Positions 12,414-64,000 of a DNA stretch of 64,000 bases are shown here, piece by piece. The number at the start of each line of letters is the position of its first letter. Position 1 is the stretch's first letter. Both the position numbers and the translations under genes were made by a program. Source of the DNA: Euglena gracilis (taxonomy: Eukaryota). The stretch is taken from the NCBI GenBank assembly GCA_039621445.1, contig CP154954.1, positions 23,944,954-24,008,953 of the forward strand. The letters run 5' to 3'. The notes under the pieces are model-generated. The model was given only the letters and a program-made list of their open reading frames with translations, did no database searches and was not told the origin of the DNA.

Positions 12414-26506
<14,093 letters not shown>

Positions 26507-40100: not shown

Positions 40101-42190
40101 AACTCGGGCCTGGCGGGGAGTTTGGGGTCAACTCCGGGTGATTCGGCAACTAAGGAATGCGGGCGGTTGCGAGTGAAAAAAAAAATCGGGAAACCGCGCC
40201 GGGATCATGGTGATGATCAGTCGGTTCCCGAGGTGGACCCGACCCGGGGGGGGGGGGGCGGGGGGAGGGGGGTCGAGGGGGGGTTTCGCCGGTTGGTACG
40301 CTTCGCTCTTACCATAAAGGGATAAGAGGGCTCAGCGAATTTTTCCGGGTCCGGCGGCAAAAAAAATCGTCGGGCAAAAAATATTTTTTTTCGATTTTTT
40401 TCGACTTTTTGACCCGTGTTTGACCAAAGTCAATGGGTCAAAAAGGCCCAAGACGGGCGCTGGCGGGCGAAGACCGCTCGTTTTTCGGCTCAAACAAAAG
40501 TTTTTCCAGGTCCGTGATGCCAAAAAACCTCGTTTCGGGCAAAAAATTTTTTTTTTTCGATTTTTTCGACTGTTGGACCCGGTTTTGACCCAAAGTCAAT
40601 GGTTGGGCGGCCAAAACGGGGGCGCTGGCGGGTCGAAAAAAAACGCTCGTTTCGGCTCAAAAAACAAGGTTTTTTCGGGTCCGGGAGGCCAAAAAACATC
40701 GTTTCGGTCAAAAAATTTTTTTTTTCGATTTTTTCGACTTTTTAAACGCTCATTTTCGATTTTTTTCGACTTTTTTGACCCAAAGTCAATGGGTTGGCGG
40801 CCCAAAACGGGGCGCTGGCGGGTCGAAAAACGCTCGTTTTCGGCTCAAAAACAGTTTTTCCGGGTCCGGGAGGCCAAAAAACATCGTTTCGGGCAAAAAA
40901 ATTTTTTTCGATTTTTTTCGACTTTTTTGACCCGGGTTTGACCCAAAGTCAATGGGTTGGCGGCCCAAAACGGGGCGCTGGCGGGTCGAAAAACGCTCGT
41001 TTTCGGCTCAAAAGCAGTTTTTCCGGGTCCGGGAGGCCAAAAAACATCGTTTCGGACAAAAAAAAATTTTTCGATTTTTTTCGACTTTTTTGACCCGGGT
41101 TTGACCCGAAGTCAATGGGTCGGCGGCCCAAAACAGGGCGCTGGCGGGTCGAAAAACGCTCGTTTTCGGCTCAAAAGCAGTTTTTCCGGGTCCGGGAGGC
41201 CAAAAAACATCGTTTCAGACAAAAAAAATTTTTTCGATTTTTTTCGACTTTTTTGACCAGGGTTTGACCCAAAGTCAATGGGTCGGCGGCCCAAAACGGG
41301 GCGCTGGCGGGTCGAAAAACGCTCGTTTTCGGCTCAAAAGCAGTTTTTCCGGGTCCGGGAGGCCAAAAAACATCGTTTCGGGCAAAAAAAATTTTTCGAT
41401 TTTTTTCGACTTTTTTGACGCGGGTTTGACCCAAAATCAATGGGTTGGCGGCCCAAAACGGGGCGCTGGCGGGTCGAAAAACGCTCGTTTTCGGCTCAAA
41501 AGCAGTTTTTCCGTCCGGGAGGCCAAACAAAAAACATCGTTTCGGACAAAAAAAAATTTCGATTTTTTTCGACTTTTTTGACCCGGGTTTGACCCAAAGT
41601 CAATGGGTCGGCGGCCCAAAACGGGGCGCTGGCGGGTCGAAAAACGCTCGTTTTCGGCTCAAAACGGTTTTTCTGGGTCCGGGAGGCCAAAAAACATCGT
41701 TTCGGGCAAAAAAAATTCGATTTTTTTGACTTTTTTGGCCGAAAACGGCTAAGTCGGACAGTGGAAAAAGTGTACAAAATGGCCCAAATTGGACGAAAAA
41801 TGGCCGTATCTCGGGCTGGGCGGGGAGCTGCGGGGAAACCAAAATCCCAGTAGATGGAGCGTTCCAAGGGCTTCAATTTAGGTTTCCGGACATTTCCTTT
41901 GATTTGGCTTCATTTTGGAGATATTTTGAAAATTGACATTTTTTGGCCGAAATGGCAGAATCCAAAGGGGGGGCTTAAAAAGGGGGGGCGGGCCGATCCT
42001 ACCCAATTTGGACCCCTTCGCGCGTGAATAACTCGGGCCTGGCGGGGAGTTGGGGGTCAAACCCAGGTGATTCGGAAACTAGAAATCCAGTCGCTCGCAA
42101 ATGAAAAAAAAATCCGGGAACCGGGACGGATCATGGTGATAATCCGTCCGTTCTCCAGGTGGCCCCGACCCGGGGGGGGGGGGGGGGGGG

Positions 42191-42224
<34 letters not shown>

Positions 42225-43050
42225 TCGCCAGGGGTAAGCTTCGCTCTTACCCATAAAGGGATAAGAGCTCAGCGACCCCCCCCCATATAGTCCGGCCCGC
42301 TCGGAGCTCTTTTGACTGAAATTCAGGGATTTGTGCCCGAAACGGGAGCCCAAAAAACACTCATTTTTGGCTCAAAAAAAAACACCTTTTCCGGGTCCGG
42401 GAGGCATGGGTTTGGGCAAAAAAAATTTCGAAATTTTCAACTTTTTTGACCCGGTTTTGACCCTAAATCCGTTGGTTTCGGACCCAAACCGGGGGGGCTG
42501 GGGAGTCGAAGGACGTTGGGTTTGGGCTGGAAAACACTTTTGTCCGGGAGGCAATGTTTCTGCGGGAGGCCAAAAAACATCGCTTCCGGCAAAAAAAACT
42601 TTTCGATTTTTTCCGACTTAATTCACCCAAAAATGACCCTAAGTCAATGCGTTGGCAGCCCAAAACGGGGCGCTGGCAGGTCGAAAAACGCTCATTTTCA
42701 GCTCAAAAACAGTTTTTCCGGGTCCGGGAGGCCAAAAAAAATCGTTTCGGGCAAAAAAGTTTTTTCGATTTGTTTTTGACTTTTTTGGCCCAAAAACGGC
42801 CAAGTCGGACAGTCGAAAAAGTGTATAAAATGGCCTAAATTGGCCGAAAAAAAAACGGCCGTATCTCGGGCTAGGCGGGGAGTTGCGGGGAAATCAAAAT
42901 ACCAGTAGATAGAGCATTCCAAGGGCTTCAAATTAGGTCTCCGGACATTTTCTTTAATTTTGCATCGTTTTCGAGAAATTTTGAAAACATTGATTTTTTG
43001 GCCCCCACCCTCGAAAACGTCGGACAGTGGGAAAAATGTACAAAGTGGCC
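37135..43050. repeat. Higher-order tandem array: 163-bp satellite blocks alternating with a ~0.5-0.75 kb spacer
   Basis: The 163-bp period is visible at 37551/37714/37877 and 40786/40949/41112. Spacer copies lie at ~38180-38945, 39577-40330, 41740-42270 and 42790-43050 (partial). A ~56-bp repeat occurs at 37135-37320 and ~38950. Confidence 0.93.
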
Positions 43051-46299: not shown

Positions 46300-47433
46300 G
46301 GATCTCGGTACTTGGGCACTCACAACATAGCTGGTGTTTTTTTTTGTTTTTTTAAAAAAAACGTTTTTTTTTGTTTTTTATTAAAAAAAAAACAGGCAAA
46401 AAAAAACGGCAAAAAAAACAAAGGGGAAAATGATGGTCCAAATTTTGCCTTTGATCGCAAGGGTGAACCAATCTTAGCTCAAATGACTTGAAAACCAATA
46501 CTTTTGGAGGTCTTCAACAAGAATGGTCAAAATAGGGCATTTTTCTGCCATTTTGGGATGTTTCAACTTGAAACATCCCAAATTTGGTGTCTTTCTCTGC
46601 CTGAGGATGCCTCTCTCTGCCTGCCTGAGGATGGGCAAAAAAAAAGCTAAAATTAAAGGCAAAAAATTTTTTTACCCTGGACCCTCAATGGCGTTTTTTT
46701 TTGTTTTTTTTAAAAAAAACATGTTTTTTAAAATTTTTTTAATTTTTTAAGTGCCAGCTATGAAATTTCATGATTGTGTGGTGCAGTGGGAGCGACTCAC
46801 AATTTAAAGATGTCGCGGACACAATGGGGACACCACCGGACTGGATTTGGAACACAAATATCCCCTGGACAAACGCCAGACTGCCAACCGGGAGGGGGGG
46901 ACCAAGCCCGAAAGAATCAAAACAGAAAAAAAAAATTATTGTGAGTTCCGCTGCGCTGAACACCCGTCCTCGGATTGTGGTTGGGCTGCCAAACTGTGCG
47001 CAATCCACCGCCTGAGTGGACATTGACGCCCCCTGCCAACAAGCAGCAGACGCAAATTAGCTGGAATTGGAACAATATCCACTGGCAAGAGTAGCCAGCC
47101 TGTCTGAGATGTGCGCTATGAACTACATCCATTCCTTGAAATCTGGAAATTGTGCCGCCCAAGGGTTGCCTAGAAACTCGACACACTTGGGCAAGAGGTC
47201 GCTGAAGGATGTATACCCTCCCCTCCAAAGCAAGCCTGCAAGAAACTCGACAACAATTTTGGCAAGATCGCATGAAAGCCCAGAGATACAAAGAACTGGA
47301 AGCAAACTGGCAGCTACCGAGATTTGTGTCACAAGACCTTACAGTCTGTCAACCCAGGGGCCTGGCTAAATTGTCGCCCTTCCCAAGCGCTTGGAACCCA
47401 GATGGAACATGTTGACCATCGCCTAGCACTCCA

Positions 47434-47709
47434 GTTAGCATTGGGTATCTTTCGAAAGATTGGGAAAATATGTTTCATTTCAGAAATTTTCCGGAAATAT
47501 TTCGGAAATTTTCGAAAAATGAAATATATTGCCTTCATTTTTGCAACCATGAAGGATACACCAGGACCTCGCCATGGTTTTCCTATTCAAGTAGGTTGAC
47601 GGGAAGGGTCCATATTTCAAATCTTTCAACGAGGGGAAAATATATTTCTGAAATTTCATGAAGTATTTCAAGTGAAGTATTTCAACATTTCTTTCGCCGC
47701 AATGCTAAC
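47434..47709. mobile_element. 276-bp AT-rich MITE
   Basis: TIR GTTAGCATTG/CAATGCTAAC, TSD TCCA; excision restores the host reading frame. Confidence 0.85.
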
Positions 47710-47804
47710 TCCAGTGGTGGCTCGGGCTCCCACTGCTCAACCCCAACGAGGTGGGGAGCACTTGTGCCCAATGTGCAGCCTGCTTGGATGCATGGGGAGA
47801 CCAT

Positions 47805-49375
47805 GGAGGCTCGGCGCGCCGCTCGGGGGGGTCCGGGACCCCCCCCCCCGCGCGGCCCCTGCGCGGCCGCTCGCCCCCCCCCTCGGACCCCCCCTCCCCC
47901 CACTGTGCCTAGCATAGCCAAGAAAAAGGCATTTTTTTGAGCAAAAAAAATGGCCCAAAAATGGCCAAAAATGACCACTTTTTGGACCCGAAAATGGGCC
48001 GCGCGCCGCCCGCGCGGCCGCCCTCGCAGGGGTGTAGAAGTAATTTTTTCTCGGGGGCGAGATCCTTGACAAGGCCCAATACAACATTGTTGTTGTTTTT
48101 TGCCGCCCGAAGGGCGGCGAGACGGTAGCGCTTTTTGGCATTGAATGTGACAAAAAACGTGGCAATTTTTGGCACAAATCCATCACAATTTGGAAGCTTT
48201 CAAGCCCAACGCAAGGGAAGGTGATGAACAAAAAAAAAAAAGAGTTGCCGCCCGAAGGGCGGCTGGACGGTAATGCATTTTCCCAAAAAGGTTCCCCAAA
48301 AAGAGCAAAACTTGTCAAAAAAAAAGCCTTGCTTTCAATTTTGAAAAAAAAGCCAAGTCAACATACATGTGTTTCTTGTTACCACCTGAAGGGCGGCGAA
48401 AAGGCAGTGGAAAAATTCACAAACAACAACCCAAATTGAAAAAAGAAAGGTTTCCGCCCCCTCCGACCCATGAGTTCTGGACTTGTTTTGCAGGGGTGTG
48501 GAAGTAATTTTTTCTCGGGGGGGGGAGATCCTTGACAAATGCCTAATGTAACCATTGTTTTTTTTTTCGCCGCCCGAAGGGCGGCAAGACAGCAGCGCTT
48601 TTTTGAAAGATGGCATTGAATGTGACACAAAATGTGGCAATTTTTGACATCATGGCACAATCCACCACAATTTCGACATAAGCCGCCCAACGGGCGGCAG
48701 GAGACGGTGATGCCTTTTGTGTTTTGAGATTTCAAAAAAAGGGATTTCAAAAGGAGTGCAAAATGCGGAAAAAGAGACGGTAATGAGAGTTCCCTCCCAA
48801 AACCCGCCCCCTCCGAGCTGTTTTGCATGGAACAAAAAAAAACGTATTGCCGCCCGAAGGGCGGCTGGACGGTAATGCATTTTCCCCAAAGGCTTCCCCC
48901 CAAAAAAGCCAAATTTGCAACAGAAATGGTGTGCTGTTTAAAATTTCGAATTTCGAGGCCAAGTCAAGGTGTATGTGTTTCCTGTTGCCGCCCGAAGGGC
49001 GGCGAGACGGCAGCGAGATACTCACAAACAATTGAAAAAAGAAGAATTTCGCCCTCCGACCCATGAGTTTTGGACTTGTTTGGCCGCCCGAAGGGCGGCG
49101 AGACGGTAGTGACCTCCAACAGCAATAACACCAAAAGGTTCAATGAAAGTTGAGCTTTTAATGTAATAAATTGAAAAGGCACAAAGAATGTGGTGAGAAA
49201 ATCACACACTTTTCAAAAAAAATTCTTTCTTTCCAAAATCTCGGGGGGGCGGCCGCCCCCCCCCCCCCCGACCCCCCACTTCTACACCTATGCGCCCTCG
49301 GCCCCCCCCCCCCCGCGCGGCTGCCCGCGCGGCCGCTCCCCCCCCCTCAGCCCCCCCCCACTGTGCCTAGCCTCC
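47805..49375. mobile_element. Non-autonomous TIR element (GGAGGCTAGGC family) with repeated GCCGCCC-GAA-GGGCGGC hairpins
   Basis: CAT|GGAGGCTCGGC...GCCTAGCCTCC|CAT; excision restores GDHAVTC. Confidence 0.88.
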
Positions 49376-49899
49376 CATGCAGTCACCTGCAAGGCCAATG
49401 GTCTAACCCAACGCCACACCATACTCCAGGACTAGCTACTTGCCACAGCACGAGAGGCTGGTATTACCTCCTCTAAAGAAGCCCAACTACCTCCTGATGG
49501 CTCCCGACCTGGTGACGTGCTCTTTCACACCTGGCGGGGTGGACCACCCTTGGCTATTCATCTTACTATTGTGCACCCATTACGACCTTCTGAACCCCGC
49601 CCCTCACCAGACTCTGTCAAGAAAATGTTACTACGTGAAGAACAAGCAAACTCAACAAATATGCGGTGGCATGTGAGAAAGTCCAATGGGACTTCAAAGC
49701 ACTAGTTTCATGAAATTTGGTTTGTATAGTCAAGCCTGTTAGGGAAAAAAAGTCCACAAGAATATTCCTGGAAAGAATCCCAAAGTGGTGGCAAAGTCAT
49801 TTTTTCCTTGTCTTGTGCGCCGTGTTGACCAAATGGTGAGCCATAATCTCAATCTCATCTGGAGTGGTTTGCTTTGTTGTGGTCGGCTGCACCGTTTGC

Positions 49900-50920
49900 C
49901 AACAGCAGGCTTTGTGTTTGCCCTTTTTGTTTCATTTTTTCCCTCGTGCAGATTTTCAACTCAACAACAGTTGTGTTCTTCCCCCGCTCCGCTTCAAAGG
50001 AGCAAGCGTGGCTTTTCGGAAGCGTGACACCATTCGCCGCCTGGTGGGCAAGGCCTTGCTCCACACTGGTGCCGCCAAGGATCAAGTGAGCAAGCTGAGT
50101 CCCCTGCAAGTGGGTGTCGGGGTTTCCCATCACAGCCTGGCAGGCAAGCTTACAGGGTACGGCACCTGGTTTCGCTCGGACTCCCGGAATCAGGAGCCGG
50201 TAGGTCCTTCCGCGACCGTCAAGGATTGCGCTGGTGGTACCACGGGGAGCTGTTGCCGTGGTCCATTTTGGCACTCTTGCTCCTGCCGTGGGGTGATTGC
50301 ACAAAATTCTCCTTGGCTCTGTGGCCCAAAACCATGAATTTCGGCAATCGCTGAGCGTACCCGGGACTCTAGTCCGTCAATGACCATGATTTGTTCAGCT
50401 GCAGATGCCCCGGGGTCCCCGTTCAAATGGGGAAAGGGCATGATGGCCTGGAGCAGGCGAGAAAAGCGGCGCCGAGAGCACTGGGAACCAAGATCCGCAG
50501 AGTGGTTGTTCCATTTGAGGCGAGCAAGAGCTTTGCGAGGCTGAGACCATGGGGAGTTGGTACGCCGTGGCGAGGGGGTCCGAATAGGGGGGGGGAGGGG
50601 GGAAATGGCCGGAAAATGGCGTGGCGAGGGGGTCTCGGATGGGGGGGGGGTGTACCATGGTTGCACAATGAAAAATGTGTTGGGTGGCGTGGAGAGGGGG
50701 TCCGGCTAGGGGGGGGGGAGGGGGGGTAAAGGCGTGGCGAGGCCCTCGGAGAGGGGGGGGAGGGGTGTACCAACCCCCCCATTTGGACGCCCTCCTGCTG
50801 GGGGCAGGATTTTGTGGGGCCTGGGTTGCTTTCCATGTCGGCACAACTGGCAAAGTGTTTGCCCCTTCCAAAGCGGCGGGGGGTGGTGTCGTAAACGAGC
50901 AGCAGGGGGGTTGTGCCATA
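49900..50920 (-). pseudogene. Decayed coding remnant with a 2A-like motif; host of the Gypsy insertion, continues at 60101-~60230
   Basis: The frame reads through the empty target site: ..LKDRKNTQYG|TTPLLLVYDTTPRRFGRGKHFASCADMESNPGPTK. Confidence 0.55.
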
Positions 50921-51247
50921 TGTAACTTTTCTCCTTGAACTGGAACTTCTCCAAACAACTTGATTGTTCGAGAACTTGAAATCTCCTACCTCTTGTTATA
51001 TTCTTGTCCAAGGTAAAGCCGCAGGCAAAGCACGTAATGTGCACTGCCAAACACGAAGAAACCACAGAACCAAAACTGTGAAGAGGAGGTGAGAGGAATG
51101 TACAATTACAGTAGCGAAACTGTCCGCGAAGCAGTTGATAGTGAAATCCTCAGCAGCAGGGAGCGGCCAAGGAGGAGACATCGCAAAGCGACGCCTGGGT
51201 AAGGGAAAAGTGATCTGTCCACTGGTAAATCAGGCTACGGCGTTACA
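50921..51247 (-). repeat. 3' LTR (327 bp)
   Basis: Near-identical to 59772-60100, with a few substitutions and one short variable tract. Confidence 0.97.
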
Positions 51248-51260
51248 ATCTCCCCCTCGC
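51248..51260 (-). promoter_or_regulatory. Polypurine tract
   Basis: GCGAGGGGGAGAT abutting the 3' LTR. Confidence 0.85.
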
Positions 51261-51468
51261 AAACAGGCAGGGCAGGTTTGCGACAAACGACGCGTTTCTC
51301 AATGGGTTGCCTACTGAAATTCAGCATCCTCAGCAGAGACTTTGGGTCTGGATTGGGGTCAAAGATCAGAAAACCTTGAAGGTACTCACCTCAGGCTTCC
51401 ATGGGTTCCTACTGGATCCTCTTACGGAAAAGCCAGGCAGGCACTCAAAGTTGAAGAGTGTGGTTTGC

Positions 51469-53147
51469 TCACTCATCAGAGAAGCAAAACAGGGTGGCCA
51501 TGCGGACAGGAATTCGGGAGGCAAGGTCTTGAGCGTTTTTCAGCGGGACATTCAAACTCTTGGACTCGCAATAATCCACAAAAGCTTTGGTCAGACAACC
51601 ATCATTGTGGATGAACGCTTTGATTGGTTCCCAAGTTGCGTCTTGGAGACCATAGCCTTTCCACACAGTCAGGAACCTCCAACCTTGTTTGTACTTATGC
51701 GTCTGGATGGATTCAACTTCAAAAAATCCATCTTCTTCAGTGTTGGGTTCCTCAGGTGGGACTTCAGGTTGGTTTGCCTCATCCCGAACGGAAATTTCTA
51801 CTTCGTCTTCATTGTCGCTCAGTTCTTCAGGCTGGTTTGGAAAATGCTTCAGGAACTCGAAAGCGACTTCAACTTCACCTCCCAGTTTCAGGGACGCTCT
51901 CAGAGAAACGGTGGAGTGCTTGACTTGGATGATTCGGAAAGGACCAAACCATTGGGATCCCAGCTTTGCAGTTGGCCATTGGGGAAACCGGTTGCGATGG
52001 ACCAGGACATAGTCATTGACTTGATAGACAGCGGTTGACCTTCCACGGTTGTTTCTCTGAAGCGCCTTTTCTCTGAGAGCTTTCAGCCGTTGGACAGCGG
52101 ACTCTTGAAGAGAAATTTGGTTGGTGATCCAGGTTTGGACATTCGGGTTGGCATCAGGCTCAGGGACAAGGTCAGGTTGCCAGGCGGGTCGACCGAAGAA
52201 AAGTTCAGCGGGGCACAGTTGGGTTGATGAGTGAACTTGGTTGTTCATTATCCAGGGGAACAAGGCGAATCCAGTCCTTTGATTTTTGGCTTGCCATCAA
52301 ACACCGCATGTTTTGTACGAAACCCCGATTCATCCTTTCGCACAAACCATTGTTCTCAGGCCTTCGGGCGGTTGAGAAATTTACTTTCACTTTCATGGCC
52401 TTCAGGGCGGATTGCCAAAATCCTCTTTCTGAAACGAAACGCACATCGTTGTCACTGAATATCTCTTTGGGGCGACCGAACTTCTGAATCCACTCTCTGA
52501 ACACAAGTTCCAGAACACCTTCGGCATCGATCCGTTTGCGGCAGGGGATGAACTGGGCAAAACGGGACAAACCACAGACAATTGTCAAAATGTAGTCCTT
52601 GCCAGCATATTCATCCATCGAGATGAAATCAAAATACAAAATTTCATTCACCATCGAAGGGATCGGCAATGCACCAACTAATCCTCGGTCTTTGGCTGAG
52701 TTTGGTTTTGCTTCAGCACAGATTCTGCAAGACAAAATGGTTTTCCGAACTTCTTCCATTAGGTCTTTCAGAGTCAAGTCAACGTGGAAATTGCTTTTCA
52801 GGAACCAGGTTGTCCTTTCGATTCCAGGATGTCCATTGATCGTGTGGCACCAGACAATTGTGTCAGGCAATTTTCCTTTCGGCAGAACAAGCTTCTTTTC
52901 ATTCCACAATTTGTTCTCGTCGCGGTAAAACATGGTTCCGTCAATCAGGGTTGCACTGTGAGGTTGGATTCTCCCCCAAACTGGTGCATACTCCTCTTGA
53001 TAGTCCTGGGCGCAAAGGTCCTTCATTTGTTCCAAAGCCTCCATTCTGAGATCAAGTTGGATGTCCATTCTTTGGAAAGCTTGGCGAGCCAGGTCCTCAC
53101 TGTCAGCTTGGAAAAGTTCACAAAAATTGTCACGGGAGAGCATATCA
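51469..53147 (-). pseudogene. Integrase (HHCC, DDE, GPY/F) plus chromodomain, frameshifted near 52260
   Basis: HTINGH..CRIC; YFDFI..FSDND..GLCERMN; WFGPFRI; FEVESIQTH..FLTVWKGYG..DATWEP. Confidence 0.93.
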
Positions 53148-53152
53148 CAGAG

Positions 53153-54578
53153 GGGGCGGACGGACGGACGGACGGACGGCTGGTGAAAATTGTGAAGGTC
53201 CGGACGGACGGCTGGCCTTGTGGGCTTGGTCCAGACGGCTGAAGAAAATTCAAAAGGTCCAGCTAGCCGGCCGGCCGGCTGGCCGGCTGGCCGGCTAGCC
53301 GGCTGGCCGGCTAGCCGGCCAGGTCTTTGGAAGCGCAGGCGATGAAAAAACGCGAACAACACGGATTCCTATTTCATTACCTTTTGTCACACAGTGTCCG
53401 CAACCTCCTGGAGATGCCATCTGGTTCCCCGCAATTGATACCTACATATCCAGTATTTTTTGCCGAGCCTGTTTCACCACCGCTTTGCTTACCACGTACC
53501 AGTTTCTGGTTTTGCTGTCCATTGTCCATTGGTGTACCCATGCCATGCTGGAGCATTACTTTTTGCTTTTACTGGAGCATTGCAAGTAACTGCTGGGCCC
53601 CAGCAGCCCCTCACAAGCCCACCAGCAGTTCTAATTGCCACAGCTGTTTGTTTTACGTATCCAGTGTCGTGTTTTGCCCTCTGCAAATCTGGAAAAGGGA
53701 TGGTGGCACATCTGCTGGAATCACCTACCCCCTTCCACCAAAACTTTGGGCCCCCCAGAACACCCCCAGTCATTGGGGGATGTGCACCCAATGCCCATTT
53801 CACGTATGGGTTCGCCCAGGGGTTTCCCCCAGATTTGGGACCCTCCAATTCTGGGATGGGTGTGACCTTGCCCCAAACCCGTTTCAGTGGCAGATGCCCC
53901 CCCTTGTGGGACAAGGCTGTCAGAAAATTAACTGCCACACTCCTGCCCCCCCTGCAGGGAAACATGGTTTTGGCACCCCCCTGTGCCCCAACCCCGGGTA
54001 TGTTGACGACCAACCGACACATTGCAGAATGTGGCCCCGTCACCACTGTGGAGCTGAATAAGCATCTGAATATCATTTGGTAGAGATGGGCAAGGGCAGA
54101 AGATAAATGGCACTTGTCAATACATCGTCAGTGTAGTTCAGCGGTCAAAGTGCTAGGCGACGTCTCTGAAGACACGGGTTCGAATCCCGGGCGCCGCGGG
54201 CGAATTTACGTTTTCACTGGGGCGGGAAGAATAATTTTCATAAAAGTACGCGGACGAGAATGGTATCGCCCCCCGTGGTGTAGCGGTCGTGTGGTTAGCG
54301 TGTGATTGGTAGGTCGCGGGTTCAAATCCCGCCGGGGGGCAGTTTTGTGCTTTTCTTGTGTTTTTCCTGATTTGACACCACGAGGAGAGGGACGCCGTTA
54401 CTGCTTTTCAGGGAGAAGGATTTTTTTTTGTTTCCGGCCGGCTGGCCAGACAGACATTGGTCCGGCTGGACGGACGGCTGGCGAAAAAATCGAAGGTCCG
54501 GACGGACGGCTGGGCGTCCAGCAAACGTCCGGCTGAAGACGTCCGGACGGCTCGGACGGACGGACGGCCAGCCGCCCC
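53153..54578. mobile_element. 1426-bp non-autonomous insertion at the end of RNase H
   Basis: 5-bp TSD CAGAG, short TIR GGGGCGG/CCGCCCC, (ACGG)n and (GGCC/GGCT) subterminal repeats. Excision restores KNEL-CDMLSR. Confidence 0.88.
54268..54341 (+). ncRNA. tRNA-like Pol III cassette (pseudo-tRNA); a second, more degenerate one lies at ~54127-54198
   Basis: Acceptor stem GCCCCCC/GGGGGGC, T-arm GCGGG-TTCAAAT-CCCGC and A-box-like TGGTGTAGCGG. The D and anticodon stems do not pair well. Confidence 0.6.
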
Positions 54579-56257
54579 CAGAGTTCATTCTTGGCACCAG
54601 GGATGTGATGGATGTGGAGTCGGAACTGGGACAGGAAAACCCACCAGCGTTTCAGTCGGGCATTTTCAGGAGGGTTCCCGCGAACAAAGTACGACACGGC
54701 AGCTTGGTCACACAGCCAGACAATAGGCAGGTGTGAGAGGATTCGGCGTTGGGACGCAATTCCCAACACCCCACCCAGCAATTCTTGTTCGTAGGTAGCG
54801 TAATTCTGGCGTGCGGGGGACCATTTCCAATTGAAATGACCGAGCGGTACGAGAACTTCGCTTTCAGTGTGGGTGTGTTTCAGGGTTCCATCACGGTTGA
54901 CTCCGGTCACAGCACCAAATGACTCAGTTTTGTCTTTGCTCAACTTTTGCCATTGGTAGAGGCTTGCACCGCCACCAACATCAGAGGCATCAGTGACAAT
55001 CAGAATTTCTCCATCACTGTTGGGGACTCCCAAATTTCTGACATCGGCAAGTTTGGCTTTCAAGGTCTCAAAAGCAGATTGATGTTCATCGGTCCATTTG
55101 AACGGAACACCCTTTTTGGTCAGGTCAGTCAGAATGGCTGATGTGAAAGAGAACCTTAGGATGTGGCAGCGATAGAAGTTGAGGGCTCCGAGAAAACGTT
55201 GAAGGGACTTGAGATCTTTCACTTGGACACGCTGCAAAGCCTCAATATTCTTTGTTGAGGGTTTCCACCAGCCATTTTCCAGTTGATATCCGAAGTACTC
55301 CAGACTTTGTTTCATGAACTCACGCTTGCTACGTTTGATTCTGAGGTGATCTTGTCGGGCGACTTCGAAAAACTCTCTCAAAATCTCATGGTGCTGTTCC
55401 AACGTGTGGGTTCCAATTCCAACATCATCAAAGAAGGCGGCAACCACACATCCTTGCTCCAGGAGTTCCTTGGCTTTGGGTCTGCGTCGAAAATCATCGA
55501 TGACTTTGTTCATTAGCTCTTGGAATACTCCAGGGGCATTGCTCAAACCAAAAGGCATCACCCTCCATTTGTACACGCGTCCATTTGGCAAAATAAAGGC
55601 AGTCAACTCCTGGGCTCGGAGAGTCAACTCCACCTGCCAAAATCCAGAGCGCATGTCCAGTTTTGACTTGAAACGCAGGGCGGCCAGGCCTTCAACAGTG
55701 GCTTCAAGGTCCGGCAGAAAACCAACGTGGGGTACATTTTTGCCATTCAGCTTGCTGTAATCACCAACAAGCCGTTTGGTTTTCGCAATTTTGGTTTCTT
55801 TGCCTTTGTCCTTCTCCACCAGGAATGAGCGAGAACAGAATCTTGGAAAATCTGAACCCTTGAATTCTTCCACCAATCCAGAGCTGACAAGTTCCTCAAC
55901 CTGTCTTTCCATCTCCAAAACATCAGGCTTCGGCATGGGAAAGCATTTCTCACGAACAGTCGAACCTTGAAATTCAGGTTTTAGCTCCAGATCCATGGAT
56001 ACCAGTTTCTTGCAGGTACCAGGGGGTGGCAATTCTCCAAAAACATCGGAAAATTCTTGTAGGATCGATTTGATTGTGGGCTCTGCGTCCAGCTTTTCCA
56101 ATTCTTGATTGAACTCGCCATGCAAAATGTGCGATTCCTTCCACTGCTTTTGGGTTGCTTGCATTTGAAGATGTGTGTGCTCCTTTGGGTTGAACAGGGA
56201 TGCAATTTGTTGGAAATCACTTCGGCAGGCGGGAAACGGGGAAGAAGGTTTGGCCAC
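54579..56257 (-). pseudogene. Reverse transcriptase and RNase H
   Basis: KLDMRSGFWQ, MPFGLSNAPGVFQ, AFFDDV, LQRFLGALNFY, VTDASDVG, NYATYEQELL, LCDQ, HIPGAKN. Confidence 0.96.
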
Positions 56258-56617
56258 TCTCCCCCATTGGCGAATTGTCGAACAACGGTTGAAACATCTT
56301 GGAGCAATTCGGAAATCTGAAAAATTTGTGAGTCCACTTCACGGGTCAGTTCAGCCATGAACAAGTCCAAATCCCAGGTTGAATCAAGCTCAAAATCGTC
56401 TTTCAGGGAAATTGGCGAGAGTTCAGGCAGTTTGGGCTCACAGGGCTTTGATGGTGTGCAGGGAACAGGCGGTTTTGGCTCTTGGGCATCAACTTCCACA
56501 AAGACCTCCTTTGGTTTGTGAATGGCTTTCAGGTCAGACAAACCAAGATTTTTTCATCTGCGATGGAGGTGTGCCAAAAGTCTTGGGTCAAGCTCAGACA
56601 CACGAATTCGGGTGCCG

Positions 56618-56860
56618 TTTGGCCCTGTCCATCCCAATTTTGGTCAATGTCTTTTCCAGTTTGGACCACGGCGGATTTGCCCACAGAAACTCAGACTCAT
56701 TGGCCATCAATTTTGACCAGTCATATTTCCATGCGCTGCTTTCCTTTGAACAGTGGAGCAATTCATGGGCATTGCCTTGTGAAGCAAACAGGTCCACTCG
56801 GATTTTGGTTGGTTCAATTCCAAGATCATTCGCAAAGTGGGTAGCAACTGATAGCTTTCA
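56618..56860 (-). pseudogene. Dam-like N6-adenine DNA methyltransferase module, C-terminally deleted
   Basis: ESYQL..(frameshift)..VDLFASQGNAH..CSKESSAWKYDW..FLWANPPWSKLEKTLTKI, containing the DLFAS and NPPW motifs. Confidence 0.8.
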
Positions 56861-56899
56861 GTGGCAAACATTCGATACATGGAGTAAATGTGTCCTTTT

Positions 56900-57226
56900 T
56901 CCTCACGCAAGGGAATTGCCTCATCACCAATGACGAGACGGGCAGGACGAAACAGGATTCCAGAAACTTTGGGGTGGTTCAGGAAATCCATACCAAGAAC
57001 AGCATCGAACGTGGTTGTGTTCAGGACAAGCAGCTTTTGGTGAAAGTCGTTGTTCCCCAGATGCAGGGTGGTTTCAGCAACACCTTCCGAATACACAACA
57101 GTTCCATCGCCCATCTTGACAGGGACTGCCTTTTCTCTTTGGACAAGAAGCCCTTGGGAGAAACGGGTTGAAATGGCAGACGTGGTGGCCCCGGTATCAA
57201 GAACAGCCGACACATTTCTTCCACCA
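56900..57226 (-). pseudogene. Retropepsin-like aspartic protease
   Basis: AVLDTGA..FDAVLGMDFL; same frame as gag. Confidence 0.93.
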
Positions 57227-57409
57227 GAAACCGTGTTTGGGCCGATTTTAAGACTTTAAAAGTCTTAAATCTTCGCCCAAAACACGGTTTCAAACAAGAA
57301 CAGTGTTTTGGGCCAAGGTTTTAGGGGGGCCAGGGGCGACCGCGGCGCCTTCGGCGCCGCGGTCCCCGCCCCTGGGCTCCCCCTAACTCTTGGCCCAAAC
57401 ACAGTTCTT
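57227..57409. mobile_element. 183-bp TIR insertion at the gag/protease junction
   Basis: Inverted ends AACCGTGTTTGGGCC/GGCCCAAACACAGTT. Removal gives in-frame NIVS-GGRNVSAVLDTGA. The TSD is unclear. Confidence 0.65.
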
Positions 57410-58581
57410 GACACAATGTTGGTTTCCAAATACAACGTGGTGCTTGGTTTTCCCAGATATGAAATGGATTCGAATTTGCGCTTCTTTCCAGGGTCTTCCC
57501 GAGAATTGGGGGGCGAATTGGCAGGCAAGTTTGACTGTGTGGCAGGACGGGGCGGCTGAGGCGATGATTGATTCAGACGCTTCTTGTCCTCACGTTTTTT
57601 CGTCCAACAGGCATCCTCATAATGGCCGACACGCTTGCAGTATTTGCAGGTTATTTTCGCCTTGAAATTTGGCTCGTTGCTGCGGTCTGCGGGGGGTCCA
57701 CGGCCAGAGGGTTTGTGTTGGTTGAAACCTTTGCCTTTGCCTTTGCCCTTGGACTTGCCTTTGCCAGGGTTGGTCGAACTTGGCTCATCACTTTCCCCAA
57801 TTAAGTGGATTTTGGCAGACTCCTCACCACCGAAGGCTTTGGCTTGGGATTACAGAAAACGTTCCAGGGCATCGTCGGTGACTTTCTTTCGCCAAAATTC
57901 TTTCACGGAATCAAAGGTCGAACATTTGTCACGGTTGTGTTCATCAGCTCTCATGTCTTTCCATTGCAGGGGGTGAATTTTGGACACAAGCATTAGAAGC
58001 TTTTCTTGCTCACCCAGGGCATCAGGGGACATCCGGGACAAAATGTCAGACATTTCCACAAACAAGGCTTCAAGCTCACCGGGGGAAGGTTCTTTTGACA
58101 ATTGGGGAAGCTTGGAAAGTTGGGCTCGGAGCAAAATGTCATTTTCAACCTTCGGGTAAACTTGCATCAGACGGGCGACAAATTCAGAAAGTTCATCCAC
58201 TTCTTCGGCAAGCCGTTCGACGACTCTCAAAACTTTGGGGGTTGAGGCGGCGATGGCCCAATCAAGTTGAATGCTGTCGGGCTGGTTTTCCACTCCGGTG
58301 AGGCGCATCCATCGTGAAAATGAGCGAAGCCAATATTCTGCATCCGAACCGTCAAACTTTGGTAATTCCAGTCCAGGCACACGAGACACAAGACCAGGCT
58401 TTCGTTCAGTGTCGGAGGTGTCAGCAGACTTTCTGGTGATCAGTTTTGGAGGTCGGGGGGCGAAGGGTGACTGGGTAGTTGAGTGTTGCGAAACATGTGG
58501 GCTGCTTAATTCAAGTCCGGCGAGGCGGGCTTCAAGCTCAACAATTTTCTGTGCAAACGACTCTTCACCAGCGTCAGACAT
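57410..58581 (-). pseudogene. gag with CCHC zinc knuckle and an in-frame TAA at 57850-57852
   Basis: ELPKFDGSDAEYWL; reading past the stop gives CKYCKRVGHYEDAC. Confidence 0.9.
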
Positions 58582-59757
58582 TTTTTCCGTTTTGGTTCAA
58601 TCACTTTCTGAGTTGCAGGGTTGATAAACAGGTTGGGCAAACGGTCGCTCAAAATCGAGGTTTTGTTGCACTCAAAATCGGATATTCTGCACTCAAAATC
58701 AGAATGGGCTGCACTCAAAATCAAGGACAGACAGCCACTCAAAATATGGGGGGGGGGCAGGCTGGCAGGTTGGAAATGCAAACAGACTTCGTTGAAACTG
58801 GGTATCAAACTGTCCAAACAAGTTGCACAACAAATTCAGAGTTGAGCAAACAAACAAGGTTGATAACCACACCTGCAGAACAAAACCTCCAAGCAGACTT
58901 TGTAATGTTTGGGTTGAAAAGTTCAGAAACAAACTGACAACCAACTTTGGTGCAAAGAACTTTGGCAAACAAGTTGGCAAACAGACTTGCAGAAATTTGT
59001 CAACAATTCTGATCAAACAATCTGGCAGACAGACTTCCAAAACAGAATCCCAAATCAGACTTGCCGACAATCTGTCAACCAACTGCTTGCCAAAACAGCG
59101 GTTGTCACTCAAAATCCTGGGGGTTGGTTGGTCAATGGGGGGATTTTGGCAAGCAGCTGGTCCAGGGGGGGCTGGTTGGCACTCAAAATCCATTTGTGTT
59201 GGTGTGGCAATCTTCCAAACAAACTTCCAACAATCAAACAGCAAACAATCAAACCAACAAACTTCAAGTTTTCTGTCAGACAGACTTCCAAAGTCCAGAA
59301 ACACAGTTTCAAACAAACAAACTTGCAAGAAACAAGGGCTTGGAGAGAGATGTTGTGAACAAATGTCCAAATTGAATTGTCACAGTTTTGGCTTTGCAAT
59401 TCAGAACTGCAGATTGAACAGTCCAAACAACCTTGCAAACAGAAGTGGTCAATGCAAATGCCAAAATCAATTTCAGAATCTGAATTCCAAAATCTCTCTC
59501 CAACAATCTTTCTGGGGGGGTCGCAATGTAACACACTGTCGCTATGTACAACAGTGTAACAGTGAAGTACAGCAAACGTTCTACCTCCTCCGGCGACTCT
59601 GCACCCAGAACTTGTTGTCCTCAAACTTGAAAACTTGAAAGATAAGGCCCCAGTGGCCACAGCAAATGCCAAAACCAGCTTCAGCCAAAACTGCTCTGTA
59701 CGAAGTCGAGATTCCCCAGCAGCTGACGACTGTCGACAGCACGTAGGATCGTAGTAC

Positions 59758-59770
59758 TCCTCTGCTACCA
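59758..59770 (-). promoter_or_regulatory. Primer-binding site complementary to the tRNA-iMet 3' end
   Basis: TGGTAGCAGAGGA, one base from the 5' LTR. Confidence 0.85.
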
Positions 59771-59771
59771 A

Positions 59772-60100
59772 TGTAACTTTTCTCCTTGAACTGGAACTTC
59801 TGTAAAAAAAAATTGATTGTTCGAGAACTTGAAATCTCCTACCTCTTGTTATATTCTTGTCCAAGGTAAAGCCGCAAGCAAAGCACGTAATGTGCACTGC
59901 CAAACACGAAGAAACCACAGAACCAAAACTGTGAAGAGGAGGTGAGAGGAATGTACAATTACAGTAGCGAAACTGTCCGCGAAGCAGTTGATAGTGAAAT
60001 CCTCAGCAGCAGGGAGCGGCCAAGGAGGAGACATCGCAAAGCGACGCCTGTGTAAGGGAAAAGTGATCTGTCCACTGGTAAATCAGGCCACGGCGTTACA
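59772..60100 (-). repeat. 5' LTR (329 bp)
   Basis: TG..CA ends; matches 50921-51247. Confidence 0.97.
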
Positions 60101-60231
60101 CCATATTGTGTATTCTTCCGGTCCTTCAAAGTGGCATTCGGCTGGTCAGATTGCTGTCCGCTATGGCCTTCCAACTGAGAAACATGTTCTGAGGATTTAG
60201 GAGAGAGGGGGGTTGCGTCCAACAGGATGGG

Positions 60232-60809
60232 GCCAATTGGGGCCAGATTTTCTGGAAATGTCTGGGGGGCTGGGTCCAGCAGGCTGGGGTAAACTGGGGC
60301 CGGACGTTTCGGCCAGAAGTTTTTGAAATATGAGGGGGGGATGGGTCAAGAAGGCTGGGGCAAAATGGGGCCAGCGGTTTTGGAAATGTCTGGGCGGCTG
60401 GGTCCAGCAGGCTGGGGCTGTGGCCTGAAAAGGCCCACAAAGCACCATTATTAAGTGCAACTTTCTCTCTCTGTTGCTTTTTCTTTTGCTTTTGCTTTAC
60501 AGTCAGTCTGGAAGTCTTGTTGCAATTTTGATTGCAAGTCCCCAAAACTGGTCCCCATTCATTCCAATCTGATGGGGGTGCCTCAAACTGCTGGACCCAG
60601 CCCCCCAGGCATTTCCAAAATGTGTGGCCCCATTTTGCCCCAACCTGCCGGACCCGGCCCCCCAGACATTTCCAAAACTTCTGGCCCATTTTGACCCAGC
60701 CTGCTGGACCCAGCAGCCCAGACATTTCCAAAATTGCTGGCCCCATTTTGTCCCGGCCTGATGGACCCATCCCCCCCCTCATATTTCAAAAACTTCTGGC
60801 CCCATTGGC
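60232..60809. mobile_element. Foldback-like element: inverted arms built of ~60-bp subrepeats
   Basis: Repeats of ..GGAAATGTCTGGGGGGCTGGGTCCAGCAG.. on the left are mirrored by CTGCTGGACCCAGC..CAGACATTTCC on the right, around a spacer. Confidence 0.7.
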
Positions 60810-60969
60810 ACGTGCTGCTGAAAAGTTGATAAACCAAGGAATACGTGTGCCGTGGAGATTGCTCAGTGCAACTTTGAGTCTTGGGTCGCAACTGCCAGTG
60901 AAAAAAACGAAAGAAATCAGCCAGACCAGGCCTACGTCAGAATCAATTAGGAATTTCGGGGGTTTATTT

Positions 60970-60995
60970 ACTTTCTGAGTGTCTATTTTTTTTCG
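60970..60995 (+). other. Genomic copy of the 26-nt Euglena spliced leader, fused to an ORF 5' UTR
   Basis: ACTTTCTGAGTGTCTATTTTTTTTCG matches the Euglena gracilis SL as I recall it. It is followed by TCTGCATAATCACC-ATG, not by a GT donor. Confidence 0.92.
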
Positions 60996-61009
60996 TCTGC
61001 ATAATCACC

Positions 61010-64000
61010 ATGGCTGTAAAGGGGCCGGATGGCCCTCCAGAAGACCCCAAGACTCAAGACAATACACCCCTTGTCAACCAAGCTGCTACCACAACCAACC
61101 CTTCAAGTACACCTACTGTTGCAGTGGACACCGGACAGTTGGAGCTGCTGGCCAAGATGTTGTTGCCGCTGTTGGTGCCGGTGCTAACCACTGCTGTGGC
61201 ACAACGACTCACTACCGCCCTGTACATAGTGACAGAGAAAGTCAAGACAGCAGCTCACAAAGAAGGAAGAGGACATGGCAAGAGAGGGAAGAGCATGAAG
61301 AGTACCTACAGAGAAGGTTTGGAAGAGATTACAAGCCCCCATGGCAGAGAGGTCGACCCAGTTATCATATATCTCAACAGAGTTCTCCACAGCCCCAGCT
61401 CCATCAGCAAGTGAGTCTGGGGCCCCCCTGTACAGCAAGCCCATCAGTGGGCATTCCACAGTCAGGCCCATCAGTGAGCATTCCAATGAACAGCCCATTC
61501 CAATGCCCACCAGTTGGTAGAAGTCAAGTATGTCCATCTGTCACATCAATCATACAAATGTACATTCCATCACAGACCAACCTTTGGGGTGAACCCCTGC
61601 AATCTCAGCAACCACTGCAATCAAACTGGAGCAGAGAAGATGACCAGAGGAAGAATTGGACCAGAGAAGAAGAGCAGAGAAGGAGAGAGGCTGAACTCTT
61701 CAGAAGCCTCAGAGCCTTTCTCAGCACAGGCCAGAGTACACAAGTCCCCCCCCTCCCAACACCATTACACAACCCTGGCCTGCCACCATCACCCTTAATC
61801 CCAGATGTGGTACTGGCATCACCATCAGCCTTCCAATGTAGTTTTCTGCCTGCAGCTTTCCCTTTTGTCTCACAAAGTCCCCCCCAAAGAGGGGACAACT
61901 CAACACAATACCTTCACCCAGTAAAACAAGTGGATCAAGAATTTCATCCCAAGGCAACTCCAAATCAAAAGCAGTCAGCAAAACAACCCCCCCCACCCAA
62001 AAGAGGAGGATCATCAACCCCAGCCAAATGCAACCCCAAAAAATCTCAGCACCAGCCCCCCAATATCAGCCCCCCCTGCAAGAGGGGGGGGGCCAGGCCC
62101 ACCATTTCGCATTTTTAAAAATCCAACAAAACCCACCATGTTTGATGGCACACAGTGGGCCAAACTGGGCACAGTGATCCTGCAGGAGGAACCCAGCCCC
62201 TTTCAATGGCAAGACCCCCCCCAGGCAACTGATTTACCAGCCTCCCCACCCAACACCCCCCTGGAAGGGGTCCCAGTTTGGGAAACACCAGAGTTTCGGA
62301 CCCTCAGGAAAGAATTTTTTTGGAGAAGGCGCATGAGACAGCAAGCAGGAGGCATTTTATTTCACGAGAAGGTCGCCAGAAAACTGGCAAACATTCAGGA
62401 AAAGTGGGTCGACATTGGCAGAACAGTGGACATTCGGCAGTCACAAAAAATGGTGCACACTGACATGAAACTCACGTTGCCACTGGCAGCGCCAAAAGTT
62501 GTGCAATCGCCCCCCCCACCAAAAAAGAACCTCACCCTGGAACGGATCAGAATCGCCCAAATTCTTCATCAATACCGACCAGAGGAACAACGTGAGGAGG
62601 GACTGGACATGTCGCACATAAAAAACGTACGCCGAGCTATCGCACAAAAAATCAAACAAAAAGTGCCAGCAGCAGAAGCAGTCCGCCCCCCGAGGACAAA
62701 GAAGAGGCTGACACCCTCCCGAGAACCAACCCTGCCCATTGCCTGGCGATACTGCCCAAGAATTTGGCTGATGGATGACATGCCCAGACCGTTACAGTTT
62801 GCGTGTGAGGTTGGATTGGCTGATCGTCTTTCCCCGTCCGTGTGGACCACCAGCGATCTTGATGACTCAAATGACTCCCTGTCGGACTATTATTCTTGTG
62901 CTGCCACAAAAAATTTCCACATGGCAGAAACAGTTGGCACCATACACCTCTGCACTGCATGCCCACACGGGGGGAAGAAGCCGGAAGACGCATATCTGAA
63001 GACGGGGCGAGGTGATTCCCTGACAACAATGGGTGATGTGGAAACCAATCCAGGCCCGCTGACGGCATTTAATGGACCCTGTGGTGAAGTCATGGATCTA
63101 TTGGACCAACTTGTTGCCATGAACATGACTGATTTCTTTCGGATCAAGGCTAAAATACCACTGCGGCAAGGCCCCGATGGCTCCTCCCGTTCACTTCTTC
63201 CCAAAGCTACATACTGGCTGAAATGCACTTTGTGTGACATTGAAACCATCACTGCCTCGGCAGGTTGGTGCCTGCACCACAGGGAAACCTGCCCTGTTTT
63301 TTCAGCCACAGTATATCCATCTACTGAGACAGCAAAAGTACACTCCGTAACAAGCCGAGGATACCCCCAAGAACAAGGTCGGGAAAGGTTTTCAGAAGGA
63401 CACCAGCCGAATGGAAGGGGGGAACGAATCACCACCCATGGTGACGTCCAAACACAACCAGGGCCCATCTACTTCCGTCTGGCCACCATGGAAAGACCGA
63501 CAATCCCTATCTCCAGGGGACTTCAAGAAAATTTCATTCGGCACAGACTGCTGGCGAGCCTTCAAGAGGTGGATGCAGAACTTCAAACTTTCCGAGACAC
63601 CTTCCCTTCCGATGTCCTTGTTGAGGACGCTACCGTCTATGAGCTCACCGAATGTTGGGAAGTTTTGAGAGGAGTTCTGTTTGTGCTCATAGGGCTATGG
63701 CCACATCGACCACCACGTCACGACTCCCCATCGAGTGTGCATGCCATTATGTGGTTGCTGACCTGTTTATGGTCCGAAGTATGCAACATCGGCGAGGCCT
63801 TTCACTTCTACCTGCCCCCTATTCACCTAATGGCACTACCCAACGTTCTCCGGCCGAGAGGCACTTTCCCCAGAGTACCTCCAACGGAGCCCTCCTCGTC
63901 CGACCTCTGCCCATTGAATGTACACACCGTTGATATCCTGGACATCATGGCCTTGTTACGTCCGACAAGATCAGTAGTTTCAGTTGACCGTCACATCCGG
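61010..64000 (+). CDS. Long intronless polyprotein-like ORF with two 2A-like motifs; probable retroelement 5' part, runs off the right edge
   Basis: ATG at 61010, with inferred compensating frameshifts near ~61230-61260 and in the poly-C at ~61990. The frame is stop-free from 61925 to 64000 (missing from the ORF track because it has no stop). It contains GRGDSLTTMGDVETNPGP (63005-63058), CTLC-x13-H-x3-C and GRGERITTHGDVQTQPGP (63413-63466). Confidence 0.75.

Follow-up and report, generated by a model that had tools for sequence, protein, structure and literature searches.

Why does a stretch of genomic DNA begin, as a mature mRNA does, with a complete spliced leader (SL)? The question is raised by the last 3 kb of a 64,000-nucleotide piece of the Euglena gracilis genome (assembly GCA_039621445.1, contig CP154954.1, positions 23,944,954 to 24,008,953 of the forward strand), which we call the window and in whose own coordinates all features are given. 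There, an SL at 60970-60995 heads a coding region that continues to the window end at 64000. The best explanation that we can offer is that 60970-64000 represents the 5'-terminal 3 kb of a copy belonging to a young and very abundant retrotransposon family of E. gracilis or a close relative. We consider it probable, with a probability of about 0.68, that this is the 5' part of a non-long-terminal-repeat (non-LTR) retrotransposon that was copied from SL-trans-spliced RNA.

The 26 nucleotides at 60970-60995 on the plus strand (ACTTTCTGAGTGTCTATTTTTTTTCG), which are the first bases of the repeat, match the complete E. gracilis SL without a mismatch. The string is identical to the one given in the available text of PMC6242988, and the same string with two extra 5' bases served as an SL primer in PMC5654406. 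It is the sole match in the 64 kb on either strand with up to three mismatches allowed, the 16-nt 3' half of the SL likewise occurs a single time within the window, and a search of shuffled sequence gave a match in 0 of 100 shuffles. The two bases right after the SL are TC instead of GT, leaving the junction with no donor, and a leader of 14 nt (TCTGCATAATCACC; 60996-61009, +), also without a GT donor, separates the SL from the ATG of the first open reading frame (ORF1) at 61010, in the context CACCATGG. A preliminary description of this DNA had reported a whole SL 14 nt before an ATG with no donor, and the exact and unique match bears this out. Because the SL is whole, is followed by a short leader and lacks the GT, the junction resembles that of a trans-spliced mRNA and is unlike an SL-RNA gene; what is found is a complete DNA-encoded SL joined without a donor to mRNA-like sequence, as in an SL-tagged retrocopy. 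We infer that trans-splicing was the origin of the SL in the DNA copies.

Part of 60970-64000 is contained in 20 public sequencing runs. At least half of the sampled words were present in 14 DNA-type runs from 11 studies, all of one organism, and the depth over the body of the element was very high. Contigs from runs X1 and X2 (DNA-type), X15 (RNA-type) and X19 (a metatranscriptome, RNA on record) were aligned to 60600-64000 at a likeness of at least 88%, and their depths were summed in bins, summed depth not being equal to copy number. For X1, the depth was 1269.2 on the upstream flank (60828-60941), 90876 in the bin containing the SL (60942-61055) and 40919-106111 in the later bins up to 64000; the corresponding values for X2 were 424.9, 56370.5 and 9338-39344. 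In both runs the element has about 36-130 times more depth than its upstream flank, which is itself repeated, with the step located at the SL and the depth remaining high up to 64000. This step indicates a dispersed, very high-copy repeat with its 5' edge at the SL, resolved to a bin of 114 nt, and the upstream flank is not common to most copies. The contigs aligned over these 3.4 kb numbered 2502 in X1 and 1857 in X2, and the 1149 and 929 contigs, respectively, that are at least 99% alike point to recent amplification. As an order-of-magnitude guess, the roughly 2 Gb of X1 sequence set against the 2.37-Gb assembly suggests copies in the tens of thousands, assuming that the organism of the run is E. 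gracilis. A number of this size would fit the draft genome in the available text of PMC6366073, which has more than 80,000 31-mers each occurring more than 10,000 times. Within the remaining 60.9 kb of the window, neither blastn nor tblastx found another copy of 60970-64000.

The SL also heads copies that differ from the one in the window. Six contigs in X1 and 12 in X2 consist of the SL plus TCTGCATA and then a different but related start (...ATGTCGGACAAATGCAAAGCCCC / TCATGTCGGACAAATGCAAAGCCCC...), forming a second subfamily, and one X15 contig carries a further variant of the SL-headed start. The presence of the SL-leader junction in this second subfamily in DNA-type runs indicates that SL-heading is a trait of the family. 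At 60963-60999, two DNA-type contigs link the end of the SL (60994 or 60999) through 4-7 bases (TGAGTAT or AAAA) to a second SL, and the T-rich bases in front of that SL are like the ones that precede 60970 (...GGGGGTTTATTT). The genome thus contains SLs in tandem.

The SL-headed family is transcribed. Contigs of the RNA type run colinearly with the DNA over 60996-61232, 61182-61663, 61367-61597, 62105-62559 and, in pieces, 62383-64000, and the one at 62105-62559 spans the junction between ORF1 and ORF2. Cover by RNA is partial, with depth in 24 of 30 bins for X15 and 12 of 30 for X19, and none of the 12 joints listed is present in these two runs. The region had been described as intron-free, and over the parts covered by RNA this description holds. 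The contigs at 61367-61597 and 61182-61663 run without a break through a GTGAGT at 61411, which therefore does not serve as a donor in the contigs observed. In X15 the bin with the SL has a depth of 730, compared with 1-8 for the body and 0 for the flank, which is the profile expected for an RNA library of an organism with SL trans-splicing.

The element is composed, in order, of the 26-nt SL, the 14-nt leader, an ORF1 of about 370 amino acids that is broken in this copy, a spacer of 19 nt and a second open reading frame (ORF2). The preliminary description had seen a single coding stretch of about 3 kb; coding sequence is indeed present, but it consists of three frame segments, and no single frame extends through 60970-64000. 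The frame of the ATG at 61010 reaches a stop at 61412-61414, a second frame is stop-free over 60979-62118, and a third, which has an ATG at 62138, meets no stop between 61925 and the window end. Four nucleotides, GCTG, that other copies carry after 61213 join the ATG frame to the second frame, giving in those copies the ORF1 of about 370 amino acids (61010-62118, +). The copy in the window is without the four nucleotides, and the remainder of its ORF1 (61216-62118) falls in another frame. GCTG accounts for 17312.5 of the 70163.8 total depth at 61213 in X1, for 7173 of 14283.6 in X2, and for the whole depth in X15 (7.64 of 7.64) and X19 (5.12 of 5.12), each of the last two having a single contig there. 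The presence or absence of GCTG at 61213/61214 divides the family, and the lone contig in each RNA-type run is of the form with GCTG. The product of ORF1 has no significant Pfam match and no known domain.

ORF1 ends with the TAA at 62116-62118, followed by the spacer (62119-62137, +) and the ATG of ORF2 (CCACCATG), which occupies 62138-64000 (+), supplies its first 620 amino acids and is still open at the window end. The visible part of ORF2 is presumably the N-terminal portion of a polyprotein. We rejected the idea that ORF1 and ORF2 are one frame split by a homopolymer error: no contig of either DNA-type run has a deletion in 61925-62118, which implies that ORF1 ends at the TAA and that ORF2 begins 19 nt later. 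The sole indel reported in this interval is an insertion of C after 61986 (919.6 of 8979.4 depth), which would not join the frames. Two ORFs on the same strand with a short spacer between them make up a layout like that of long interspersed nuclear elements (LINEs).

ORF2 contains the 2A motif that had led the preliminary description to propose a 2A polyprotein starting 14 nt after the SL; the motif is real, but it is housed in the second ORF and not in the one next to the SL. A degenerate Cys/His module, recognized by BLASTP against a module of P0011 (one of the protein relatives treated below) and as domain 2 of a hidden Markov model (HMM), is followed by GRGDSLTTMGDVETNPGP (62888-63058, +), within which the first site, DVETNPGP (63035-63058, +), agrees with the canonical C-terminal motif of 2A/StopGo peptides, D[VI]ExNPG|P. 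A second Cys/His module, with its CxxC at 63224-63235 and its H..C at 63275-63292, is followed by GRGERITTHGDVQTQPGP (63059-63466, +), which contains a 2A-like site, DVQTQPGP (63443-63466, +), located 136 amino acids beyond the first and differing from the canonical sequence where this has E and N. In the six-frame ORFs of at least 40 amino acids, 89,579 residues in all, there are just two instances of NPGP, each after GRG; the other one is on the minus strand near 50.8 kb. From its match to the motif, DVETNPGP would be expected to have 2A activity, that is, to cause skipping of a peptide bond.

To place ORF2, we turned to its protein relatives. An exhaustive phmmer search of 1.84 billion representative proteins returned six matches (P0001-P0006). 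P0001, also the only protein found by the homologue search at near lengths (the search at longer lengths found none), is a 94% identical copy in which NPGL replaces NPGP and the end is frameshifted. P0002-P0006 are 31-39% identical to ORF2, the similarity being confined to query residues 357-515, which correspond to 2A-module-2A. In the alignment of this unit GRG, PG, C, C, H, C and GRG are invariant; it reads GRGxxxxxxGD[VI]ExNPGP, then about 110 amino acids with CxxC-x14-H-x3-C, then GRG...2A, and the stretch of ORF2 before the first 2A aligns with the same module in degenerate form. ORF2 thus has the unit of Cys/His module and GRG..2A that characterizes a group of multi-2A polyproteins with reverse transcriptase (RT) and restriction-like endonuclease (RLE), namely P0002 and P0007-P0018. 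P0002 goes on into a C2H2 finger and an RVT_1 domain (E 1.2e-4; the protein is cut off), and RVT_1 is present in all 12 of its longer relatives (P0007-P0018, 1337-2226 amino acids). A Dam domain is precomputed in 4 of the 12 and was found in 4 of 5 in our own scan; regular expressions find at least one strict D[VI]ExNPGP in 8 of the 12, the Dam-like NPPF in 8 of 12, and CxxC...GDHxxxC, the zinc knuckle before the RLE, in 6 of 12. P0002-P0018, which come from ENA, JGI and Logan, show a Dam-like NPPF, 1-4 2A sites flanking Cys/His modules, a C2H2 finger, an R2-like RT and a C-terminal RLE; P0015 additionally has an N-terminal SLBP RNA-binding domain. They may overlap with the DAM-retrotransposons of a preprint (10.64898/2026.05.21.726589, available part).

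A profile of the 13 proteins P0002 and P0007-P0018 finds R2 proteins as its nearest matches in the PDB (9nl3_A, E 3.4e-23; 9dou_A, E 5.4e-23), with LINE-1 ORF2 at about 1e-11. ORF2 itself matches this profile in hhalign with a probability of 92.7 (E 4.4e-7) over residues 288-443 only, in the six-frame HMM scan with E 3.3e-12, and in BLASTP against single members with 4e-8 (P0007) and 9e-6 (P0011). Judged from these similarities, ORF2 appears to share one N-terminal unit with R2-like multi-2A polyproteins, the rest of it being unplaced, and the element most likely belongs to the RLE-carrying group of non-LTR retrotransposons (R2/CRE-like). Pfam has no significant family in the visible 620 amino acids, in which no RT, RLE, APE (apurinic/apyrimidinic endonuclease), C2H2 finger or Dam-like NPPF domain was found, the remainder of ORF2 lying outside the window. 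In the ESM Atlas the best score for ORF2 was 0.77 and ORF1 had no usable match, and a search of the PDB by sequence gave nothing for ORF2 or P0007. An AlphaFold2 model of 2A-module-2A (mean pLDDT 61.0, pTM 0.41) has a confident core at about residues 36-110, predicted to consist of a helix, three strands and two helices, and Foldseek returned 0 of 343 PDB matches at E ≤ 0.001. Protein scans of metagenome, viral and genome contigs found no relative. A scan of metagenome DNA with the SL-leader junction gave two loci, AT-rich and unrelated to the element, which we took as chance matches.

Taken as a retrotransposon copied from trans-spliced RNA, the reading that had already been put forward in the preliminary description, the element agrees with the depth step at the SL, with the second SL-headed subfamily and with the 2A module held in common with RT polyproteins. 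Its cycle would then be as follows. The transcript of the element would be matured like the host mRNAs, through SL trans-splicing just upstream of the leader, and both ORF1 and ORF2 would be translated from this RNA. At DVETNPGP the ribosome would skip a peptide bond (StopGo), releasing an N-terminal product of about 307 amino acids apart from the downstream Cys/His module and the rest of the polyprotein. The RT and endonuclease of the polyprotein, presumed to lie beyond 64000, would copy the whole SL-bearing RNA into DNA by reverse transcription at a nicked target, so that every full-length DNA copy would start with the SL as its initial 26 bases. RT and endonuclease are features that we expect of this family from its relatives.

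Several observations weigh against this reading. The window stops partway through ORF2, and the visible part of the element shows neither an RT nor an endonuclease, a tail or a target-site duplication. The homology to RT-bearing proteins spans only about 125-160 amino acids, and searches with Pfam, phmmer, the ESM Atlas and profiles found no relatives for the rest of ORF2 or for any of ORF1. The form without GCTG, to which the copy in the window belongs, makes up about 75% (X1) and about 50% (X2) of the depth at 61213, which implies that much of the family has a broken ORF1. The coding differences listed between this copy and others number 27, of which 17 are non-synonymous and 10 synonymous, too few to show purifying selection; the 27 belong to 40 listed differences, which include 12 in the upstream flank and one in the spacer and beyond which there are 131 others. 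The 114-nt bin that bounds the 5' edge also gathers SL sequence from elsewhere in the genome, the flank was judged as unshared by its depth and not by the flank sequences of other copies, and the assignment of X1 and X2 to the DNA type is an automated guess. Among the 12 joints listed, none carries a truncated relic SL (60995 back to 60980). Finally, an SL-headed copy has lost its splice acceptor, and its renewed expression is left unexplained.

This last point would pose no problem if the SL had been captured and not spliced on. An ancestor of the CRE/SLACS/NeSL type could have landed where exon and intron of an SL-RNA gene meet and been co-transcribed from the promoter of that gene; the SL would since have been part of the element, perhaps as an internal promoter element, and would travel with full-length copies, trans-splicing of the element being unneeded. 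The known SL-gene-specific elements CRE, SLACS, CZAR and NeSL-1 belong to the RLE group, and so do the R2-like relatives of the module in ORF2; CRE, NeSL and R2 are named as REL-endo clades in the available text of PMC3708506. The two DNA-type contigs that join the SL to another SL, with T-rich bases like those before 60970, also speak for a capture. Most copies are nevertheless without the flank, whose depth is 36-130 times below that of the element, and the SL is whole, ending exactly at the splice junction as in trans-spliced mRNA, whereas the known SL-gene elements split the SL. Moreover, the Rfam search detected neither a 5S rRNA gene nor any other RNA family close to the SL, its sole match in the 64 kb being a tRNA at 54269, and on the upstream side, to which this observation applies, the flank is a satellite-like inverted repeat. 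A whole and leader-fused SL, the lack of SL/5S context and the low flank depth all disfavour the alternative raised in the preliminary description, an element that targets SL genes, though an SL-gene insertion may conceivably have been the historical origin of the family; we regard such a capture as unlikely.

A second alternative is a family of non-autonomous retrocopies, in which a trans-spliced mRNA without an RT of its own, derived from a degenerate element or from a host or viral 2A gene, was amplified in trans. With no RT in the visible 3 kb and with half or more of the DNA depth showing a broken ORF1, this alternative has to be taken into account, and RT sources adjoin the element in the form of a Ty3/gypsy retrotransposon (50921-60100) and RLE and RT relics (47.3-50.3 kb). 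It is countered by an ORF2 that has run for 620 amino acids without a stop when the window ends, by the layout of two ORFs with a short spacer, which is that of autonomous LINEs, and by the 2A-module unit, which otherwise precedes an RT in the same polyprotein. Protein homologue searches also found no intron-bearing parent or other cellular relative, and we consider this explanation rather improbable. That an SL-bearing transcript entered a genomic contig through a cDNA or assembly chimera is very improbable, even in a highly repetitive genome and with a satellite-like inverted repeat (60203-60780) adjoining the junction, given SL-leader junction contigs in two separate DNA-type runs of different studies, very high body depth in 14 DNA-type runs of 11 studies, and a flank that is covered in DNA-type runs and has zero depth in RNA-type runs.

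The window also contains the remains of other elements. Scanned in six frames with the HMM of the 13 proteins, it shows on the plus strand, at 47276-47596, 47709-47909, 49175-49432 and 49436-49702, the C-terminal zinc knuckle and RLE of an R2-like element (profile positions 1326-1495; best piece E 3.9e-11). Two interruptions, one of about 1.27 kb (47910-49174) and a smaller insertion at about 47445-47705, break up this relic, which spans 47276-49702 and has a key D replaced in 'AIHLTIV'; a CRE-like endonuclease relic had been noted here before, and the profile HMM identifies it as of the RLE type. An RT motif fragment (DTIRRLVGKALL...LQVGVGV; 49840-50334, +; profile 899-932, E 3.4e-8) sits after the endonuclease relic, out of order, suggesting a second, rearranged or truncated copy. 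From the relics at 47.3-50.3 kb it follows that the family of the 13-protein profile lives in this genome. The same HMM matches a 2A-like GRG...DMESNPGP on the minus strand at 50426-50995. The fragment concerned (GRGKHFASCADMESNPGP; 50426-50920 and 60101-60300, -) has a frame that continues once a gypsy element and one CCATA are removed, which indicates that the gypsy element landed in an older 2A-bearing element.

This Ty3/gypsy LTR retrotransposon (50921-60100, -) lies directly upstream and looks complete, with LTRs of 327 and 329 nt (50921-51247 and 59772-60100) that begin with TG, end with CA and are 97.3% identical, a 5-bp target duplication, CCATA (50916-50920 and 60101-60105), RVT_1 and RNase H at 54401-56338 and an integrase at 52208-53368. 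Between its pol ORFs, on the opposite strand, is a tRNA-Thr(TGT)-like sequence (54268-54341, +; also called by ARAGORN), the only match to Rfam in the 64 kb (54269-54340; 29.1 bits with a cutoff of 29). Satellite-like units in direct and inverted order, each about 80-107 nt long and 79-90% complementary, occupy 60203-60780 just upstream of the SL; this block is repeated in the genome (depth 1200-2600 in X1) and has many listed differences from most other copies. Further away, 163-bp tandem repeat arrays form several blocks, 60-97% alike, in 37200-42920, with higher-order duplicates of 1.39 kb (38287-38586 equals 39682-39981), and there are long (GT)n-rich microsatellite blocks at 14990-15650 and 23610-24720 and a (CAGA)n block at 25460-25690.

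Among known systems, CRE1/2, SLACS, CZAR and NeSL-1 resemble the Euglena element in that they are euglenozoan or nematode RLE elements with a physical link to the SL, and the module's RT relatives are likewise of the RLE type. These elements go into one fixed site within SL-RNA genes and retain flanks of SL-gene sequence, whereas in the Euglena element the SL is whole and fused to the leader, lies outside an SL/5S repeat and follows a flank unshared by most copies. R2 (9nl3, 9dou, 8gh6) provides the nearest solved RTs to the profile of the module-bearing polyproteins and has in common with P0007-P0018 an N-terminal zinc finger, an RT and a C-terminal CCHC plus RLE, a link made through these relatives and not through the window's own sequence. 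R2 targets the 28S rDNA and is not known to have a 2A or an ORF1. The 2A-bearing APE-type LINEs (L1Tc, Ingi, CR1, Rex1 and others) similarly carry a D[VI]ExNPGP StopGo site within the N-terminal part of the ORF2 protein, as described in the available text of PMC3708506. The Euglena element differs from them in that no APE is matched by Pfam in the 313 amino acids after the first 2A that lie within the window, and in having two tandem GRG...2A units behind Cys/His modules; its relatives differ in carrying an RLE and, in 8 of 12, an NPPF Dam-like motif.

A DNA-encoded 5' SL on an intron-less copy is also taken as the mark of reverse transcription of trans-spliced mRNA in the DinoSL-tagged retrogenes of dinoflagellates (PMC6050394, PMC5585692, PMC3942190, available portions). 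The retrogenes are host genes that were copied in trans and frequently bear truncated relic SLs in stacks, whereas the bearer in Euglena looks like a retrotransposon itself, with very high copy number, one complete SL and no truncated relic among the joints listed. In Schistosoma mansoni, 32 genes with an internal SL include six (retro)transposable ones, perhaps 'trans-spliced retro-transcribed elements'; in the available text of that paper (PMC5832876) this is a passing remark, which comes with no evidence on family structure or copy number, and assembly chimeras are raised as well. DNA-encoded SLs as marks of retroposition and a 2A within the N-terminal part of the ORF2 protein are thus established, as far as these accessible texts go, in dinoflagellates and APE-type LINEs, respectively. 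What is new here is a very abundant and apparently self-coding element that regularly has the SL at its 5' end and from which tandem Cys/His units would be released by 2A. The openly accessible literature searched contained no description of SL-headed retroelements in Euglena, and the accessible text of the Euglena genome papers, searched for the term, had no mention of SL. The family may already be among the repeats catalogued in the libraries of the genome paper and among the elements listed in the preprint on Dam-retrotransposons (10.64898/2026.05.21.726589).

The Euglena genome comprises 2.37 Gb with 58.84% repeats, and unclassified repeats amount to 32.7% (available text of PMC11252322). 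The SL-headed family may explain part of this unclassified fraction and of the very frequent 31-mers. In its strongest form, the proposal would make the hard-wired SL the obligatory 5' terminus of a LINE-like family that is among the most abundant repeats of the 2.4-Gb genome; the SL would be functional in the next generation, for instance as an SL-RNA-type internal promoter element or as a site at which trans-splicing can occur anew, so that the element ensures its own expression without a conventional promoter, and the 2A-released Cys/His chain would replace processing by a protease. We regard this combination as doubtful. LINE-like elements must carry, or regain, a means of transcription after each jump, and the family suggests that in a trans-splicing organism there is another solution, in which the RNA of the element is capped by the host SL and copied whole. 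The units of Cys/His module and flanking 2A tie the family to the poorly described multi-2A polyproteins with RT and RLE. The SL would be a built-in tag of full-length retroposition, and such a tag would let the history of retroposition in Euglena be read directly.

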